Shown: in pieces, positions 9,247 through 33,372 of the stretch
Layout of the letters: the number at the start of each line of letters is the position of its first letter
How positions within the stretch are numbered: position 1 is the stretch's first letter
Assembly: GCA_965214095.1 (NCBI GenBank)
Contig: OZ243938.1
Coordinates: forward strand, 1,984,001-2,048,000
DNA from: Candidatus Poribacteria bacterium
GTDB lineage: Bacteria > Poribacteria > WGA-4E > WGA-3G
DNA: 64,000 nucleotides
Reading direction: 5' to 3'
Position numbers and translations under genes: made by a program
Notes under the pieces: generated by a model
Databases searched by the model: none
What the model was told of the DNA's origin: nothing
Seen by the model: the letters and a program-made list of their open reading frames with translations, nothing else

Positions 9247-9364
9247 TATACCATTTCTATAAATGTTTATCCCATTAACAATTTGTTAAGAATGTCTTGT
9301 AGGATGGCACAAACTGGCAGTTTGTGCTACAAAAATGCGGCGTTCTCTATTAGAAATGGTATTA
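9247..9364. repeat. MITE-like repeat family A, copy 1
   Basis: TIR TACCATTTCTA/TAGAAATGGTA; internal hairpin GCACAAACTG-G-CAGTTTGTGC followed by TAC; related copies at 27531 and 40564. Confidence 0.8.
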
Positions 9365-9418
9365 TCATCAAACGAGACTTATTCACACAGTAGTAGGTTA
9401 TACCTAAACGATGGATAT

Positions 9419-10660
9419 CTACTTCTCCTGTGTTTGTCCTGCGACAGCAGATGCACGTGCACCGACACCCAGCACTGCTAAAAATCCTTCCGAATCCGCA
9501 TGATCAAAGTCCCCAATATCTTCCATAGATGCAGTTTCTTCGGAATATAGTGAATGCGGAACGCCACCTGCAGCATGAAATGCTACATTCCCTTTATAGA
9601 GTGCAACCGTAATCGTGCCACTCGCTAAATTGGTGAACTGTTCAACAGATGCTAACATAGATTGTGTGGCAGAATCGAACCAGTAGCCTTCATATATCTG
9701 TTCAGCAACATTGGCGGAAATATCTTCAAAAAGTTTTCTGGCACGTCTATCTATAATCAGTTGTAATAGATATTCATAACACCTACCAAGAAGTTCCATC
9801 CCTGGTGATTCATACACACCACGACTCTTAATTCCAACAAAACGGTTTTCAACGGTATGAATACCGATTCCGACTCCGTTACGTCCGCCAATCCGATTTG
9901 CTTCTATTAAACTCATTAGTGGTGTACAAGGACTTCCATTGATTTCAACAGGGATGCCCCGTGCATAAGTAACACTAAAGTGCTCTATATTATCGGGGGC
10001 ATCTTTTGGGTGTACACCCATCCCAGGTGTGATAAATCCTGCGGGTGTTTTCAACGACTCTAACCTGCCAGCCTCATGTGTTAATCCTAACAAATTTGCA
10101 TCAGTAGAATAAGGTTTCTCATGGGTTGCAGTAATAGGTAGTCCGTGTTTTTCACAGAAGTCTATCATCTCTTTTCTACCACCGAATTGCTTGAGGAATT
10201 CCGCATCACGCCACGGGGCATAAACATCAAAATTTGGATTTAGCATGTTAGTCGCAAGTTGAAATCGGACTTGATCGTTTCCACGTCCAGTGGCACCGTG
10301 CGTTAGAATAGAGATCCCACGACTTTCCATTTCTGGCAACAATGCTTTGACAGTAACATGCCGTGCAATGCCAGTCGTGTTCCAGTATCCTCCTTCATAC
10401 ATCGCCTGACATTGGATGAGTCGTATTCCTTCTTCAGCGAGTGCATCCTTTGCGTCAACGATTACCGCTTCTTTAGCACCACACGCCAACATCCGATCCC
10501 GAATCTCGTCAACGTTTCGTTCATCGGGTTGTCCAAGGTCTGCCGTTAAACAGACTACGTTGACACCGTTGTCAACTAACCACTTTGTTATAGTGCAACT
10601 ATCAAGTCCACCAGAGACTGCTGCTCCGACGGTTTTGCCTTGTAAATCTTGTATATTCAT
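9419..10660 (-). CDS. argG: argininosuccinate synthase
   Basis: AVSGGLDS, HGATGRGNDQVRF, YSTDANLLG, VENRFVGIKSRGVYESPG; native start ATG at 10660. Confidence 0.95.
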   Translation of the reverse strand: MNIQDLQGKTVGAAVSGGLDSCTITKWLVDNGVNVVCLTADLGQPDERNVDEIRDRMLACGAKEAVIVDAKDALAEEGIRLIQCQAMYEGGYWNTTGIARHVTVKALLPEMESRGISILTHGATGRGNDQVRFQLATNMLNPNFDVYAPWRDAEFLKQFGGRKEMIDFCEKHGLPITATHEKPYSTDANLLGLTHEAGRLESLKTPAGFITPGMGVHPKDAPDNIEHFSVTYARGIPVEINGSPCTPLMSLIEANRIGGRNGVGIGIHTVENRFVGIKSRGVYESPGMELLGRCYEYLLQLIIDRRARKLFEDISANVAEQIYEGYWFDSATQSMLASVEQFTNLASGTITVALYKGNVAFHAAGGVPHSLYSEETASMEDIGDFDHADSEGFLAVLGVGARASAVAGQTQEK

Positions 10661-10718
10661 CAATCTTCGGGCAGGAGACCCCGCTGCTTTAGCACGGGGA
10701 GGAATGCCCGCTCCTCTA

Positions 10719-12177
10719 GGGTGTGTAAAGTTTTTGGCATGAAATTGCCTTGAATGGAGTTCTTGCTTTGCATGTATACACATGGTATCCTAACCTAATA
10801 AATAAATCACAAGTTTAGGAGAGGATACCAATGTCAAGTATATCATTAAGTGTTCATGAAAGCAACGATTACGAAGATGATTTTAGAAAGATTGTTAAAG
10901 AAGTAAACGATCTCTATGGAGACATCAATGTTAACGAGAGTTTATCTTTAGATGATGTTGAAGTTCGTGTTTTTGAAGCATTTCGTTCTCTTGAACAAAA
11001 GTTTTTAGAAATGTGTGTCTCTAAAAAGGCAAGTAAGCAAGAGAGTGAACCTGTTGAATGTCCAGAGTGTAAAGCACCTTGCCGTCCATTACGCAAGCGT
11101 GCGAAACATCTAACAACTCTTTGTGGCAAAATAAATATAAGGCGTTGGGTGTATTGTTGTGAACACGGACATAGGCATGCCCCGTGGGAAGTCAAACAGA
11201 AGTTATCGGATCAATACACGCATCGTGTCGCTGAAGCGATGTGTCGTTTGTCTGCGCGGCTTGACTATAGGGAAGCATCAGAGGAGTTGTCTCATCAAGG
11301 TATAGAAGTGAGTCACACGACACTTCATCAAAGTGTGTGTAAGTTGGCAGAAGATTTGGATGTATGTGAACAAGTAGAGGCTCAAGAACTTAAGGAAAAT
11401 CAGCGTTGGTATGTGAGTTGCGATGGGTGCCACACGAACTCTCCGGATGGGTGGAAAGAGGTGAAAGTGGGGTGTATTTACAGAGATTATCCACAACCTG
11501 TTTCGGGTGGGACCCCGAGTGTGAGAACAGAAAGTATTCGGTATGTTGCGGGTCGTCAAAATGCCGCCGCTTTTGGTAAGAAGTTGTATGCGTTAGCACT
11601 AAAAAGTGGCATCTATCAAAAAGATATAAATACACAAGTGATTGTATTTATCGGAGATGGTGCTGCATGGATTTGGAACCTTTGTAAAGAATACTTTCCT
11701 AATGCTGTTCAGATTGTGGATTATCCACACGCCGTGTCTCATCTGTATGATGTTGCGAAACTTGTGTTTGAAGAGACAGAAACGGAGTTGTTTGAAGCGT
11801 GGACAAAAGAAACAGAATGTTTTCTGCATGATGGGAACATCGCAGAAGTTGCCTCAAGTATTCGTGCCTTAGCCACACAGCACCCAGAGGTGTCAGAGAG
11901 TTTAGAAAGAGAAGCAAGATATTTTGAAAAACATGCCAACCGCATGCAGTATAAAGCGTTTAGAGAAAAAGGGTATATGATTGGAAGCGGTGTGATTGAA
12001 AGTGCGTGTAAACATGTTGTCGGAGAAAGGTGTAAACAAGCAGCTATGAGATGGGAAAAACGGGGCATCAATGTTGTGCTAAAGTGGAGATGTTTGTCAA
12101 AGAATAAGGCTTGGGACAGATATTGGTATCCAAACACAAAAGCAGCATGATGTTCATGCCAAAAACTTTACACACCC
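10719..12177 (+). mobile_element. ISLre2/ISKra4-type (Mutator-like DDE) insertion sequence, copy 1, 1459 bp
   Basis: 25-bp perfect TIR GGGTGTGTAAAGTTTTTGGCATGAA; 9-bp TSD GCTCCTCTA at 10710-10718 and 12178-12186. Confidence 0.95.
10831..12150 (+). CDS. ISLre2/ISKra4-type DDE transposase
   Basis: VSCDG, IGDGAAWIW, DYPHA, IGSGVIESACK..R.K..MRW motifs; N-terminal Zn ribbon. Confidence 0.92.
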   Translation: MSSISLSVHESNDYEDDFRKIVKEVNDLYGDINVNESLSLDDVEVRVFEAFRSLEQKFLEMCVSKKASKQESEPVECPECKAPCRPLRKRAKHLTTLCGKINIRRWVYCCEHGHRHAPWEVKQKLSDQYTHRVAEAMCRLSARLDYREASEELSHQGIEVSHTTLHQSVCKLAEDLDVCEQVEAQELKENQRWYVSCDGCHTNSPDGWKEVKVGCIYRDYPQPVSGGTPSVRTESIRYVAGRQNAAAFGKKLYALALKSGIYQKDINTQVIVFIGDGAAWIWNLCKEYFPNAVQIVDYPHAVSHLYDVAKLVFEETETELFEAWTKETECFLHDGNIAEVASSIRALATQHPEVSESLEREARYFEKHANRMQYKAFREKGYMIGSGVIESACKHVVGERCKQAAMRWEKRGINVVLKWRCLSKNKAWDRYWYPNTKAA

Positions 12178-12193
12178 GCTCCTCTATTTTTTC

Positions 12194-12222
12194 TTGACAT
12201 TTGTTGTCAAATATGTTAGACT
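12194..12222 (+). promoter_or_regulatory. sigma70 promoter of tnpB element
   Basis: TTGACA-17-TAGACT with extended TG. Confidence 0.75.
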
Positions 12223-12227
12223 CTTCT

Positions 12228-12310
12228 CAGCATAGTTTTTTGGTAGAGAGGAAATCCGCTTCGCTTGAGGCGGTCTCTACCATAACTACATTGCCCCGGG
12301 AACTATGCTG
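12228..12310 (+). ncRNA. structured 5' leader RNA of tnpB (three stems plus possible pseudoknot)
   Basis: CAGCATAGTT/AACTATGCTG, TGGTAGAGA/TCTCTACCA, CCGCTTC/GAGGCGG; same topology as 13702-13776. Confidence 0.6.
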
Positions 12311-12322
12311 GAGAAGGAAACT

Positions 12323-13368
12323 ATGCGAACCTATAAATATAAGATCCGCAACCATCCCAAGAACAAACGCTTTGGCAATATGCTGGCAGGAACAGAATGC
12401 AACCCCATCTGACGAAGTTGCTCAAGACGACCAAGAAACATTGGGCTTGGATACCTCGTGACACTTTGGACGCTGCGATTATCCGTGTTGACACTGCTTA
12501 TCAACGTTTCTTTGCGGGTAAAGGCGGAAAACCCAAGTTTAAGCGCAGGCACAGATATAAGTCTGCCAAGTTCCAAAGCGGCTATAAACTTGAAGAAGGC
12601 AGAGTTCGGATATCCTTTAAATCGTGGAACGCCACCACACAATCTCTGAAGTTTGACAAACGTTGGTTTTCTTTCCATCAACACCGTCCTTGGAAGGGGA
12701 ATGTCCGCTATATCCAAATCCTTCTCGATAGTGCAGGTGACTATTGGCTCTATATTATCACAGACGACGATTCTGCCGAACCCTTTACGCACACAGGTGA
12801 GAACGTTGGTATTGATTTTGGTCTGAAGTCGTTTTTGACATTGAGCACTGGTGAAAAGATAGAGTCTCCGCAGTTCCACAAACACTCTTTGAAACAACTT
12901 CGCCAACTGAATAAATCCGTGAGTCGCAAAATCAAAGGGTCTAACAACTGGTTCCGTGCTATCAGACACCTCGCACGGCATTATATCAAGATAGCAAACC
13001 AACGCAGAGATTGGCACTGGAAACTTGCGACAGACTTGTGCAGACGGTTTGATGTGATTGCCACCGAAACGTTGAACCTTGATGGCATGAAGCGGTTGTG
13101 GGGACGGAAAGTCTCCGATCTCGGTTTCTATCAGTTTATTCAATTGTTGAGTTTCAAGTGTTTTAAGCATGATAAACAATTCCATCAAATCGGACAATGG
13201 ACACCGACAACAAAACCTTGTAGCACCTGCGGACATAAAAACGAAAATCTTTCTCTCAATGATAGACAGTGGACATGCACTCAATGCAAATCTCAACATG
13301 ATAGAGATGTCAATGCTGCTATCAATATATTGCGGGCTGCTTATGATCCCGTTGTGGAGCAGATGTGA
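12323..13368 (+). pseudogene. tnpB: TnpB RNA-guided nuclease, frameshifted near the N-terminus
   Basis: ATG 12323 MRTYKYKIRNHPK... stops after 29 codons; rest in another frame (12397-13368) with intact RuvC GIDFG / ATETL / DRDVNAAINI and CSTC/CTQC Zn ribbon. Confidence 0.8.
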
Positions 13369-13446
13369 GACGGATGTTCTCTTCGGAGAACAACGCAAAC
13401 TGCTACGAAGCACAAGCCCCACGCTTTAGCGTGTGGGTGCTATGAC
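13369..13446 (+). ncRNA. predicted omegaRNA (reRNA) scaffold at the tnpB element right end (5' boundary uncertain)
   Basis: Lies between tnpB stop and right end; hairpins GTTCTCTTCGGAGAAC and the right-end hairpin; role inferred from TnpB biology. Confidence 0.6.
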
Positions 13447-13453
13447 AATCGGA

Positions 13454-13482
13454 ATTATATCACGATAGTACAAAAATCGCAA
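13454..13482 (-). promoter_or_regulatory. displaced native argG promoter
   Basis: - strand TTGCGA-17-TATAAT with extended TG; only 7 nt from argG ATG once 10661-13446 is removed. Confidence 0.75.
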
Positions 13483-13606
13483 TAATCATATCTTAGCAAA
13501 AGCATTTAATTGTCGTGATTCAATATTGTTGGAGGGGTTTTTAACCCCAATTCCTGTGCCAAGGTGAATTTTGCTTGCCGAACTGACGTGTATCTCCAAT
13601 TTTTAC

Positions 13607-14129
13607 CAAACGTTGCGGTGTGAAAGCCCAAGTCTTTAGATTTGGGATGAAACACCGCCAAAAACCTTGATTTTATTCAAGTAATGTGGTATACTCTATA
13701 TATCAACTGGATAGGAGAGCAATCATCTACTCTCTGTAGATGTCCTATCCAATCCGATTGCTCGGACAGAGTTGATGTTGATACTCTCAACGATACCACA
13801 TTCGGTTGTATACACTGCAAGTTATGATCCTTGCCAGTCGTTTGTGATGCGTTCTGAAATCGCTTTATGAGATTGTGGCGGTGTTCCCTCCACAACCGCG
13901 AGAAATAACAGAACAATAGACAAAGTATCTGGGACGATTTTGGGGTAATAAAGTAGTCCCTGTTAGTCGTGTCTTGGCGGACACCCCCACAATTGCTGTG
14001 CTGGTAAACTTGGCTTGAACCCAAGTGAGTAGTCTATAAGTCTATAAAAGATGCCCACATCTTCAAAAAACTTCCGAAGTGAGAAGATAACCTAAAGAAC
14101 CCCAATCCTTTAGGTTTGGGAGCCGTCAG
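13607..14129 (+). mobile_element. non-autonomous IS200/IS605 derivative (523 bp)
   Basis: Target TTAC 13603-13606; guide AAAG + hairpin CCCAAGTCTTTAGATTTGGG; right guide GAAC + hairpin CCCAATCCTTTAGGTTTGGG ending TCAG; internal promoter TTGATT-17-TATACT; LNDTTFGCIHC remnant like the TnpB Zn ribbon. Confidence 0.8.
13702..13776 (+). ncRNA. structured pseudoknotted 5' RNA in the non-autonomous element
   Basis: ATCAACT/AGTTGAT, GGATAGGA/TCCTATCC, CATCTAC/GTAGATG, pseudoknot GAGCAAT/ATTGCTC. Confidence 0.65.
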
Positions 14130-14297
14130 AAAAGGTTTAGTCCGAAGTATCTTCAGAAAACCTTTACGACATTAAATGAATATGGATTTGAAGTAGGACT
14201 ACGTAGACTTGAAGCGGATGATATTGAGATGATCAGACAATTAGAACGAATAATGCGACAGAAACGACCTACCCAACGAAATAATCGCAAAAATTAA
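14130..14297 (+). pseudogene. 3' remnant of a hypothetical gene truncated at the IS right end
   Basis: Open frame KRFSPKYLQKTFTTLNEYGFEVGLRRLEADD...* starts exactly at the element boundary with no start codon. Confidence 0.5.
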
Positions 14298-14333
14298 ACT
14301 CTTGAAGGAGAAAATAATCTCTTGGAGGAACAA

Positions 14334-15140
14334 GTGAAAGTTATACCCACAGTTGTGTTAATTTTTATTTTATGCACGGTTGTATCCTGTGTTCAAACAA
14401 TAGAGGCACCTGTTAACAAATATGAGGGACCAAGACCACAAACGCCTGAGACTATTCTTGAAGCATTTAAAGATGTTCCCAGTAAATGGCTGCGAAGAAG
14501 TTATGAGAAATATCCTGCAACTAAATGGTTCCAAATACTTATTGATAAAGGTATTGTGATTGAAGATTCTGATGATTTTGATCAGTATCTGATGCTGCGT
14601 GAGCGTTTAATACAGGAGGAGCGTAGATATTTATCTGAACCAGATATGTGGCTGCCAAAAAAATATTTCGGAAAAACATACAATAGCTGGGAAACCTATA
14701 AAGATGCTTTCATTGACAGAAAAATTTGGGAATACCAACAAATAAAAACTGCAAAACAGGCAGACCCTTCTGTATACCGAGTTAAATTCCTAGGCCCCGA
14801 TGGTAGAACCGTTCTTCCGCTTCCCGAAAAAAGCGTTGTCATTAAGAGAGTACATCGGGGATATGCTGGAAATAGAGGAACAAGTAGCAATGCTAAACTT
14901 TCTGAGCAACAAATGTTTGACATCGTATATAAAGGGAAACACCCACGGGGTTGGAAAGTCGTTTATATTGATAATATGAGCAACATTCTTCCTGAAAGAC
15001 CGACACCGATCAGCCGAGAGGAACTTGGACTTCCCCCTGATGTGCCGTGGCCCCCAAAAAGCCGAGCACACTTAGAGCGTATTTTTGAGGAAGTAAAACA
15101 AGGTCGCTATAACAACTATAACAACTTTGGGGATAATTAA
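14334..15140 (+). CDS. hypothetical lipoprotein
   Basis: GGAGGA RBS before GTG; hydrophobic signal ending VVSC. Confidence 0.7.
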   Translation: MKVIPTVVLIFILCTVVSCVQTIEAPVNKYEGPRPQTPETILEAFKDVPSKWLRRSYEKYPATKWFQILIDKGIVIEDSDDFDQYLMLRERLIQEERRYLSEPDMWLPKKYFGKTYNSWETYKDAFIDRKIWEYQQIKTAKQADPSVYRVKFLGPDGRTVLPLPEKSVVIKRVHRGYAGNRGTSSNAKLSEQQMFDIVYKGKHPRGWKVVYIDNMSNILPERPTPISREELGLPPDVPWPPKSRAHLERIFEEVKQGRYNNYNNFGDN

Positions 15141-31913: not shown

Positions 31914-33372
31914 GGGTGTGTAAAGTTTTTGGCATGAACATCATGCTGCTTTTGTGTTTGGATACCAATATCTGTCCCAAGCCTTATTCTTTGACAAACA
32001 TCTCCACTTTAGCACAACATTGATGCCCCGTTTTTCCCATCTCATAGCTGCTTGTTTACACCTTTCTCCGACAACATGTTTACACGCACTTTCAATCACA
32101 CCGCTTCCAATCATATACCCTTTTTCTCTAAACGCTTTATACTGCATGCGGTTGGCATGTTTTTCAAAATATCTTGCTTCTCTTTCTAAACTCTCTGACA
32201 CCTCTGGGTGCTGTGTGGCTAAGGCACGAATACTTGAGGCAACTTCTGCGATGTTCCCATCATGCAGAAAACATTCTGTTTCTTTTGTCCACGCTTCAAA
32301 CAACTCCGTTTCTGTCTCTTCAAACACAAGTTTCGCAACATCATACAGATGAGACACGGCGTGTGGATAATCCACAATCTGAACAGCATTAGGAAAGTAT
32401 TCTTTACAAAGGTTCCAAATCCATGCAGCACCATCTCCGATAAATACAATCACTTGTGTATTTATATCTTTTTGATAGATGCCACTTTTTAGTGCTAACG
32501 CATACAACTTCTTACCAAAAGCGGCGGCATTTTGACGACCCGCAACATACCGAATACTTTCTGTTCTCACACTCGGGGTCCCACCCGAAACAGGTTGTGG
32601 ATAATCTCTGTAAATACACCCCACTTTCACCTCTTTCCACCCATCCGGAGAGTTCGTGTGGCACCCATCGCAACTCACATACCAACGCTGATTTTCCTTA
32701 AGTTCTTGAGCCTCTACTTGTTCACATACATCCAAATCTTCTGCCAACTTACACACACTTTGATGAAGTGTCGTGTGACTCACTTCTATACCTTGATGAG
32801 ACAACTCCTCTGATGCTTCCCTATAGTCAAGCCGCGCAGACAAACGACACATCGCTTCAGCGACACGATGCGTGTATTGATCCGATAACTTCTGTTTGAC
32901 TTCCCACGGGGCATGCCTATGTCCGTGTTCACAACAATACACCCAACGCCTTATATTTATTTTGCCACAAAGAGTTGTTAGATGTTTCGCACGCTTGCGT
33001 AATGGACGGCAAGGTGCTTTACACTCTGGACATTCAACAGGTTCACTCTCTTGCTTACTTGCCTTTTTAGAGACACACATTTCTAAAAACTTTTGTTCAA
33101 GAGAACGAAATGCTTCAAAAACACGAACTTCAACATCATCTAAAGATAAACTCTCGTTAACATTGATGTCTCCATAGAGATCGTTTACTTCTTTAACAAT
33201 CTTTCTAAAATCATCTTCGTAATCGTTGCTTTCATGAACACTTAATGATATACTTGACATTGGTATCCTCTCCTAAACTTGTGATTTATTTATTAGGTTA
33301 GGATACCATGTGTATACATGCAAAGCAAGAACTCCATTCAAGGCAATTTCATGCCAAAAACTTTACACACCC
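31914..33372 (-). mobile_element. ISLre2/ISKra4-type IS, copy 2, 1459 bp
   Basis: Same 25-bp TIR; TSD GTATTTTGC at 31905-31913 and 33373-33381. Confidence 0.95.
31941..33260 (-). CDS. ISLre2/ISKra4-type DDE transposase (same protein as 10831-12150)
   Basis: Identical 439-aa translation. Confidence 0.92.
   Translation of the reverse strand: MSSISLSVHESNDYEDDFRKIVKEVNDLYGDINVNESLSLDDVEVRVFEAFRSLEQKFLEMCVSKKASKQESEPVECPECKAPCRPLRKRAKHLTTLCGKINIRRWVYCCEHGHRHAPWEVKQKLSDQYTHRVAEAMCRLSARLDYREASEELSHQGIEVSHTTLHQSVCKLAEDLDVCEQVEAQELKENQRWYVSCDGCHTNSPDGWKEVKVGCIYRDYPQPVSGGTPSVRTESIRYVAGRQNAAAFGKKLYALALKSGIYQKDINTQVIVFIGDGAAWIWNLCKEYFPNAVQIVDYPHAVSHLYDVAKLVFEETETELFEAWTKETECFLHDGNIAEVASSIRALATQHPEVSESLEREARYFEKHANRMQYKAFREKGYMIGSGVIESACKHVVGERCKQAAMRWEKRGINVVLKWRCLSKNKAWDRYWYPNTKAA

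Follow-up and report, generated by a model that had tools for sequence, protein, structure and literature searches.

The start codon of argG, the argininosuccinate synthase gene, is occupied by a mobile element in the Candidatus Poribacteria genome from which the window analysed here was taken (64,000 nucleotides of contig OZ243938.1; coordinates below are those of the window unless another sequence is named). The element, a tnpB-only member of the IS200/IS605 group, spans 10661-13446, abuts the ATG of argG and lies antisense to it (Table 1). Elements of this kind, which insert next to the tetranucleotide TCAT, show a real bias towards start codons. The original prediction had seen in the insertion a potentially reversible switch on arginine synthesis; we give about even chances to a different reading, in which the element persists since argG is likely still expressed through it, perhaps at a reduced level, and is not a switch.

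An element was counted as docked on a start codon if its site coincided with the first ATG of a reading frame, 90 codons or longer, on the opposite strand. In the host genome (5.2 Mb in four contigs; G000 among the genomes compared), 8 of 11 complete TCAT elements sit on such an ATG, a left end without partner and a TCCT-target copy located 5 bases ahead of an ATG being left out of the count. The other three are found 16 bases before a start, 35 bases before a start and, as a 47-base remnant, right after a stop codon. Left ends were searched for with two patterns in the 40 genomes of the genus, giving matches in 15 and 2 other genomes, and were merged where host sites were identical; a few loci were missed by the tabulation pattern. 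Over G000 and its relatives, frames of 90 codons or more open at 38 of 67 distinct sites. Among the 55,051 TCAT sites of G000, 14.8% open such a frame and 3.9% are a first ATG, and the background rises to 17-22% if only TCAT sites outside genes and at starts could survive. That a TCAT target would bias insertion to start codons, as had been predicted, is strongly supported by the 42 sites with both ends in hand, 27 of which are the first ATG of a gene. With argG left out, P is ~1e-8 against the 22% expectation, a value that overstates the case in that kin share insertions and are not independent; the sites nevertheless lie in different genes, including pyrC, a glutaredoxin-like gene and an ECF sigma factor fusion. 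Among TCAT elements, insertions inside reading frames are rare and start-codon insertions common. One start codon with the same upstream sequence in two genomes (G000 C1:3279539; L093 of G044) carries a 406-bp mini-element in the former and a 1386-bp TnpB element in the latter, explained either by repeated targeting or by one insertion with later internal deletion.

The left end of the element begins directly behind a TCAT that is the reverse complement of the ATGA opening argG. This is the only argG of the genome (sole match to its Pfam domain), and with the element removed in silico TATAAT comes to stand 7 bases ahead of its ATG. For comparison, 39 other genomes of the genus were inspected, of which 37 hold argG; at 36 of these 37 loci, where the element is absent, TATAAT lies 6-8 bases before the ATG, and the rejoined flanks of the window agree base for base at the junction with the two closest relatives. 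The promoter call is further supported by the recurrence of the same -10 box in many other Poribacteria records, ~30 bases farther up and with GGAG and a TTG start. The original prediction was thus right about the target, the guide and the restored TTGCGA-17-TATAAT-7nt-ATG layout, as it was about the intact end hairpins and the frameshifted tnpB described below; that argG is intact and ~2.8 kb from its promoter also stands, but half of this distance, a nested element of the ISKra4 family, had been overlooked. The hairpin of the TCAT-element family was found at none of the argG starts parsed in a genome scan (79 of 80 loci), and none of the 6 matches from a metagenome scan with the promoter-side motif lies at argG.

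Without the nested element, the TnpB element proper measures ~1.32 kb. It has no tnpA at the locus, and its tnpB is present though frameshifted; the fragment scores 219 bits against NF040570 (cut-off 100), and the 76-bp loss is defined by comparison with an intact paralogue of 373 aa (83% identity) at C1:326 kb. Since the contig from sequencing run X1 (see below) spans the deletion at 12376/12377 without difference, it is not an assembly slip. Both ends carry subterminal hairpins, with DNA folds of -13.7 and -9.3 kcal/mol, and no inverted pair connects the ends. Insertion took place 3' of a fixed TCAT, and target duplication is absent, as judged from other copies and from the rejoined flanks set against relatives. 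In such elements four guide bases ahead of the hairpin pair with the target in an exact register, for which the comparison was with the AAAG/TTAC of IS608 only. In G000 these four bases covary with the target in five families (GAGA or GAAA with TCAT; GAAG with TCAC; AAGA or AAAA with TTAT; AAAG with TTAC; AAAT with TTAA), by which the ends of the argG copy look competent. An Rfam search of 10500-14400 gave no match at E up to 1.

Table 1. Features of the argG locus, in window coordinates.
Feature	Position	Strand	Basis
argG, argininosuccinate synthase, 413 aa, intact	9419..10660	-	TIGR00032, 361 bits (cut-off 268)
Target TCAT: left cleavage site and predicted target-adjacent motif (TAM)	10657..10660	+	sequence; same motif precedes other copies
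Left end: guide GAGA 10675-10678, inner hairpin 10679-10699, outer stem 10668-10673/10705-10710	10661..10718	+	comparison of copies, fold
Predicted split ribosome-binding site: AGGAG (10715-10711), 43-nt stem-loop, 7 bases, ATG	10661..10715	-	RNA fold and 16S 3' end CACCTCCT; putative function
Nested ISKra4-family element; transposase 10831-12150, 439 aa	10719..12177	+	NF033572, 242 bits (cut-off 205)
Consensus sigma-70 promoter ahead of tnpB, TTGACA-17-TAGACT	12194..12222	+	consensus match only
tnpB, frameshifted by 76-bp deletion at 12376/12377; 323-aa C-terminal frame from 12397	12323..13368	+	
Stop-free frame, 363 codons, antisense to and in register with tnpB; putative translation	12331..13422	-	0 TTA/CTA/TCA codons in tnpB
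Right end: guide CAAG 13413-13416, hairpin 13417-13437, cleavage site TGAC 13443-13446; 3' part of predicted omega RNA scaffold	13413..13446	+	
Right flank, predicted omega RNA guide over argG -10 box	13447..13462	+	analogy with known TnpB systems
Native leaderless argG promoter, TTGCGA-17-TATAAT with extended TG	13454..13482	-	promoter match; conserved across genus

Persistence of the insertion was followed in four of the 22 sequencing runs listed, all examined as contigs, which drop rare variants: X1, X5 and X9 are DNA-type runs from three studies, X1 being probably the source sample of the assembly, and X15 is an RNA run. Two small-share RNA runs among the 22 bear the label 'sponge metagenome', and we take the bacteria to be sponge symbionts. 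Filled junctions were present in X1, X5 and X9, and the argG alleles beside the element are 100%, ~97% and 92% alike to the window, respectively, with no gaps; in X9, 16 of the 17 listed argG differences fall on third positions. ISKra4 is missing at the argG site in X5 and X9 (joint 10706 to 12175), the X9 copy is free of the 76-bp tnpB deletion, and the X5 copy has a 147-bp deletion of its own. The TnpB element therefore came first, and strain-specific deletions and ISKra4 followed as it decayed in place. In X9, the element together with 160 bases of the promoter flank is ~99% alike to the window, yet the adjoining argG contig is 92% alike, and 15 of the 17 listed letters are common to G042, where the site is empty; the mosaic may come from recombination or homing across a species boundary, or from two strains.

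On the strand of argG the left end presents AGGAG, a hairpin and the ATG, in that order, and this layout is predicted to act as a split ribosome-binding site (16S rRNA 3' end, CACCTCCT). The 6-bp outer stem is kept in the predicted fold of 9/9 sequences, and flanking pairs also form in some. AGGA or GGAG stands directly before the outer stem at 45 of 67 sites, and those sites are at starts more often (30/45) than the sites without it (8/22; Fisher p 0.034), a weak correlation. As modelled, start-codon docking is probably tied to this replacement ribosome-binding site. Precedents exist in genes 38 and 25 of phage T4, for which PMC3014915 describes split initiation regions with a stem-loop between the Shine-Dalgarno (SD) sequence and the AUG that shortens their distance, as predicted here. 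The T4 spacings are 22 and 27 bases in linear sequence, and their function has been shown; at argG ~50 bases separate the two, a transposon end forms the stem and the function is predicted.

The second peculiarity of the element lies in tnpB itself, in which in-register antisense stops number 0 in 323 codons with 14 expected; no more than one such stop is found in 4 of 1037 genes of 300-450 codons. In IscB-like copies with the same ends, the host strand is open up to a TAG that overlaps the AGGA. Zero in-register antisense stops were also noted in three TTAT-target TnpB elements (386 aa) of G000 (C1:491851, 1009430 and 2317001), each lying within the final codons of a host gene and showing a frame of more than 430 codons on the host strand.

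The nested ISKra4 element has 25-bp perfect inverted repeats and a 9-bp target duplication (10710-10718 and 12178-12186); an identical copy, likewise with a 9-bp duplication, lies at 31914-33372. It shares its family transposase, inverted ends and 9-bp duplication with the ISKra4 family (NF033572) and is unusual only in its place, just outside the predicted ribosome-binding site, and through its target duplication the AGGAG has been kept on the argG side. It adds 1.46 kb to the path from promoter to argG. By eye, no convincing outward -10 box was seen in the left part of the element, and three minus-strand promoter matches fall inside ISKra4, among 13 found with 7.4 expected by chance. A 41-codon in-frame extension of argG from an ATG at 10783 is at most a minor possibility, since it belongs to the hairpin of ISKra4 itself.

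Expression of argG through the element would proceed in three steps. Transcripts from the displaced promoter would have to traverse antisense tnpB (1.26 kb) and, after it, ISKra4 (1.46 kb); ribosomes translating the open antisense frame would shield most of the read-through RNA from Rho, the gene of which is present in the genome; and the left-end hairpin would fold out ~43 bases, placing AGGAG ~7 bases from the ATG. The stop-rich RNA of ISKra4 likely lowers argG output in this strain. Tentatively, and as a broader proposal that we hold to be possible, TCAT elements may be read-through cassettes at large, with the hairpin as split ribosome-binding site and the nuclease gene kept open antisense. 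Such cassettes could occupy the start of a housekeeping gene at little cost, even converting a leaderless start into an SD-led one, and the filled argG may have crossed species by TnpB homing (X9).

Several observations weigh against expression through the element and against its special fit for start codons. The ISKra4 stretch holds 12-20 stops per frame. The antisense frame has no evident good start, the leaderless transcript being without AUG and the first GTG lying inside the right-end hairpin. The depletion of antisense stops is clade-wide (0-8 stops in 49 tnpB loci, TTAT- and TTAA-target families included) and is therefore not specific to start docking, and other A-ending codons are also somewhat low in this tnpB (28 with 44 expected). 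Sites without AGGA are at starts still above background. The third-position bias of the X9 argG may predate the insertion. No transcript was seen crossing the element in the one RNA run (X15), whose coverage of the 92% argG allele ends at 10650, so that it is silent on the filled allele. Finally, argG was not found in G004 (99% complete), nor in G032 (73% complete), and the G004 result suggests that loss of argG may be tolerated in the genus.

An alternative is that argG has been silenced, at least since the arrival of ISKra4, leaving a strain permanently auxotrophic for arginine or citrulline, which its sponge surroundings would supply, with the insertion drifted to fixation. We regard this as a substantial possibility, if short of probable. 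It is in line with the 2.8 kb between promoter and argG, half of them stop-rich, in a Rho-bearing cell, with the want of a clear outward promoter, with minus-strand matches in ISKra4 that are near chance and with the failure to find argG in G004. It also has a parallel in G013, where an unrelated TnpB element with a TGAA target lies in codon 2 of argG and in the same direction (L017:1-1417, L036:1500-3020), its left part being on another contig with another flank; argG and its promoter are separated there in the assembled sequence. The right end of this element supplies an in-frame GTG, which counts in favour of continued expression. This G013 element is itself interrupted by one that is presumably of the IS982 family (IS982-like). 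Against silencing, argG, argH and an argF-like gene (intact; 272 bits, cut-off 281) are free of stops, and the rarity of insertions inside reading frames next to the many at start codons is hard to explain if both kill the gene.

The bias may also stem from targeting rather than tolerance, a reading that is compatible with either state of argG: TnpA would prefer single-stranded, unstructured, T-rich template DNA at gene starts or forks stalled by RNA polymerase, and AGGAG would be incidental. IS608 is indeed drawn to stalled forks and highly transcribed genes (PMC5027513). Several of the insertions away from start codons coincide with probable transcription starts (C1:4221016, L072, L095), and docking persists at 6 of 19 sites in the subfamily that lacks AGGA. 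The GC skew of the chromosome gave no clear origin, and hence no estimate of lagging-strand bias. Against this reading, which we hold to be somewhat unlikely, docking is commoner with AGGA, as counted above, and the listed left ends of TTAA- and TTAT-target elements lack AGGA, though one TTAT mini-element family of G000 has it.

The switch of the original prediction would have TnpA, acting in trans, excise the element often and the revertants escape cutting, giving a mixed argG-ON/argG-OFF population. Some of its parts are in place. Both ends and guides are intact and fit the target, the empty site would equal the wild type exactly, and the genome holds four full-length tnpA genes and one partial match, two of the full-length genes with HVH, the intact HUH motif, and two with YVH. 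Four IscB-like copies, whose left end is almost that of the argG element, share 99% identity (a fifth, 93%; NF040563 below cut-off), which indicates recent movement of such ends in trans. Judging from these sequence features, excision of the TCAT element by TnpA in trans is possible. In opposition, the resident elements that carry tnpA target TCAC and differ from the TCAT element in hairpin sequence, and the empty junction (10660 to 13447) is absent from the assembly and from the 15 joints shown of 22 for the X1, X5, X9 and X15 contigs. Depth in X1 is even: the argG contig continues into the left end without difference at 239, the right end runs into the promoter at 245, and tnpB and the right junction stand at 245-246. 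A switch further needs a route back to OFF; excision being one-way, this leaves reinsertion at one of 55,051 TCAT sites or copying of the element from a sister chromosome, driven by TnpB. The filled state, moreover, need not be OFF, given the predicted replacement ribosome-binding site on the element. Nor are revertants clearly safe, because the intact paralogue, with the same TCAT target and a right end 90% alike over 147 bases, could use the guide RNA of the argG copy; action of TnpB in trans on the guide RNAs of other elements has been proposed (10.1101/2023.03.14.532601). The escape of revertants thus proves a weak premise, and reversible heterogeneity is very unlikely; precise excision would possibly amount to a rare one-way reversion that the intact paralogue could cut.

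Elements with the target N|ATGA (TCAT), IS605B-1_MA and ISC1-1_MA among them, were described by Kapitonov, Makarova and Koonin in 2016 (PMC4810608). The tnpB-only and iscB elements of that account share one end and the target, as here, and insert without duplicating it; seen from the common end, tnpB and iscB lie on opposite strands. Its main text lacks the phrase 'start codon', and the parts seen do not mention docking, a split ribosome-binding site or an open antisense frame. IS608 of Helicobacter pylori and ISDra2 have subterminal hairpins, four-base guides 5' of them, insertion 3' of a tetranucleotide and precise, target-keeping excision (PMC3201880, PMC5027513), and the guide principle described for IS608 in PMC3201880 fits the covariation in G000. 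The argG element differs from both in having no tnpA, in TCAT/TGAC instead of TTAC/TCAA and in the extra outer stem of its left end. Among the ISGst elements of Geobacillus stearothermophilus, many tnpA-less copies are predicted to have been moved in trans, and the nuclease cuts the empty donor joint; the tnpB of the argG copy is frameshifted, so cutting would depend on the paralogue, and start-codon docking of ISGst goes unmentioned in the portion consulted (10.1101/2023.03.14.532601). No paper on start-codon docking of such elements was found in a search outside which most subscription papers fell, and the phrase 'antisense open reading frame' was absent among the literature matches listed. 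What the argG locus contributes is a housekeeping target without a leader, the nesting of a second element and persistence in three samples.

Further mobile DNA was noted around the locus and in related elements. In the TnpB element, the -35 box of tnpB lies within a TTGACA...TGTCAA palindrome (12194-12210) that recurs in related elements and may be an operator. A gene-less IS200/IS605 mini-element of 523 bp (13607-14129; target TTAC, right end TCAG) follows 160 bases beyond the TnpB element and has at least two more full copies elsewhere in the genome. At C1:4230081 (L002), the left-end hairpin of a tnpA and tnpB element is split by another small inserted repeat. On the other side, between a peptidase M6 gene and the end of argG, a short repeat at 9247-9366 reaches a summed depth of ~20,800 in X1, against 240, and is by this depth a high-copy small element. 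Two partial argG duplicates lie beside the intact argG of G007 (C1:1861889-1862302). ISKra4-type terminal repeats up to ~40 bases upstream of the argG -35 box in several relatives (L098, L099, L109, L115, L116, L117, L012, L016 and L021) indicate that mobile elements accumulate ahead of argG throughout the genus.

Because its native transcript is leaderless and a second element has been added, argG is a hard case that is able to separate tolerance from fixed loss. If argG is indeed expressed through its element, a DNA transposon could be nearly harmless without splicing, by landing on start codons and restarting the gene with its own end. This would explain how elements with RNA-guided nucleases fill gene-dense symbiont genomes, and an insertion sequence in front of a biosynthetic gene would not need to mean auxotrophy.

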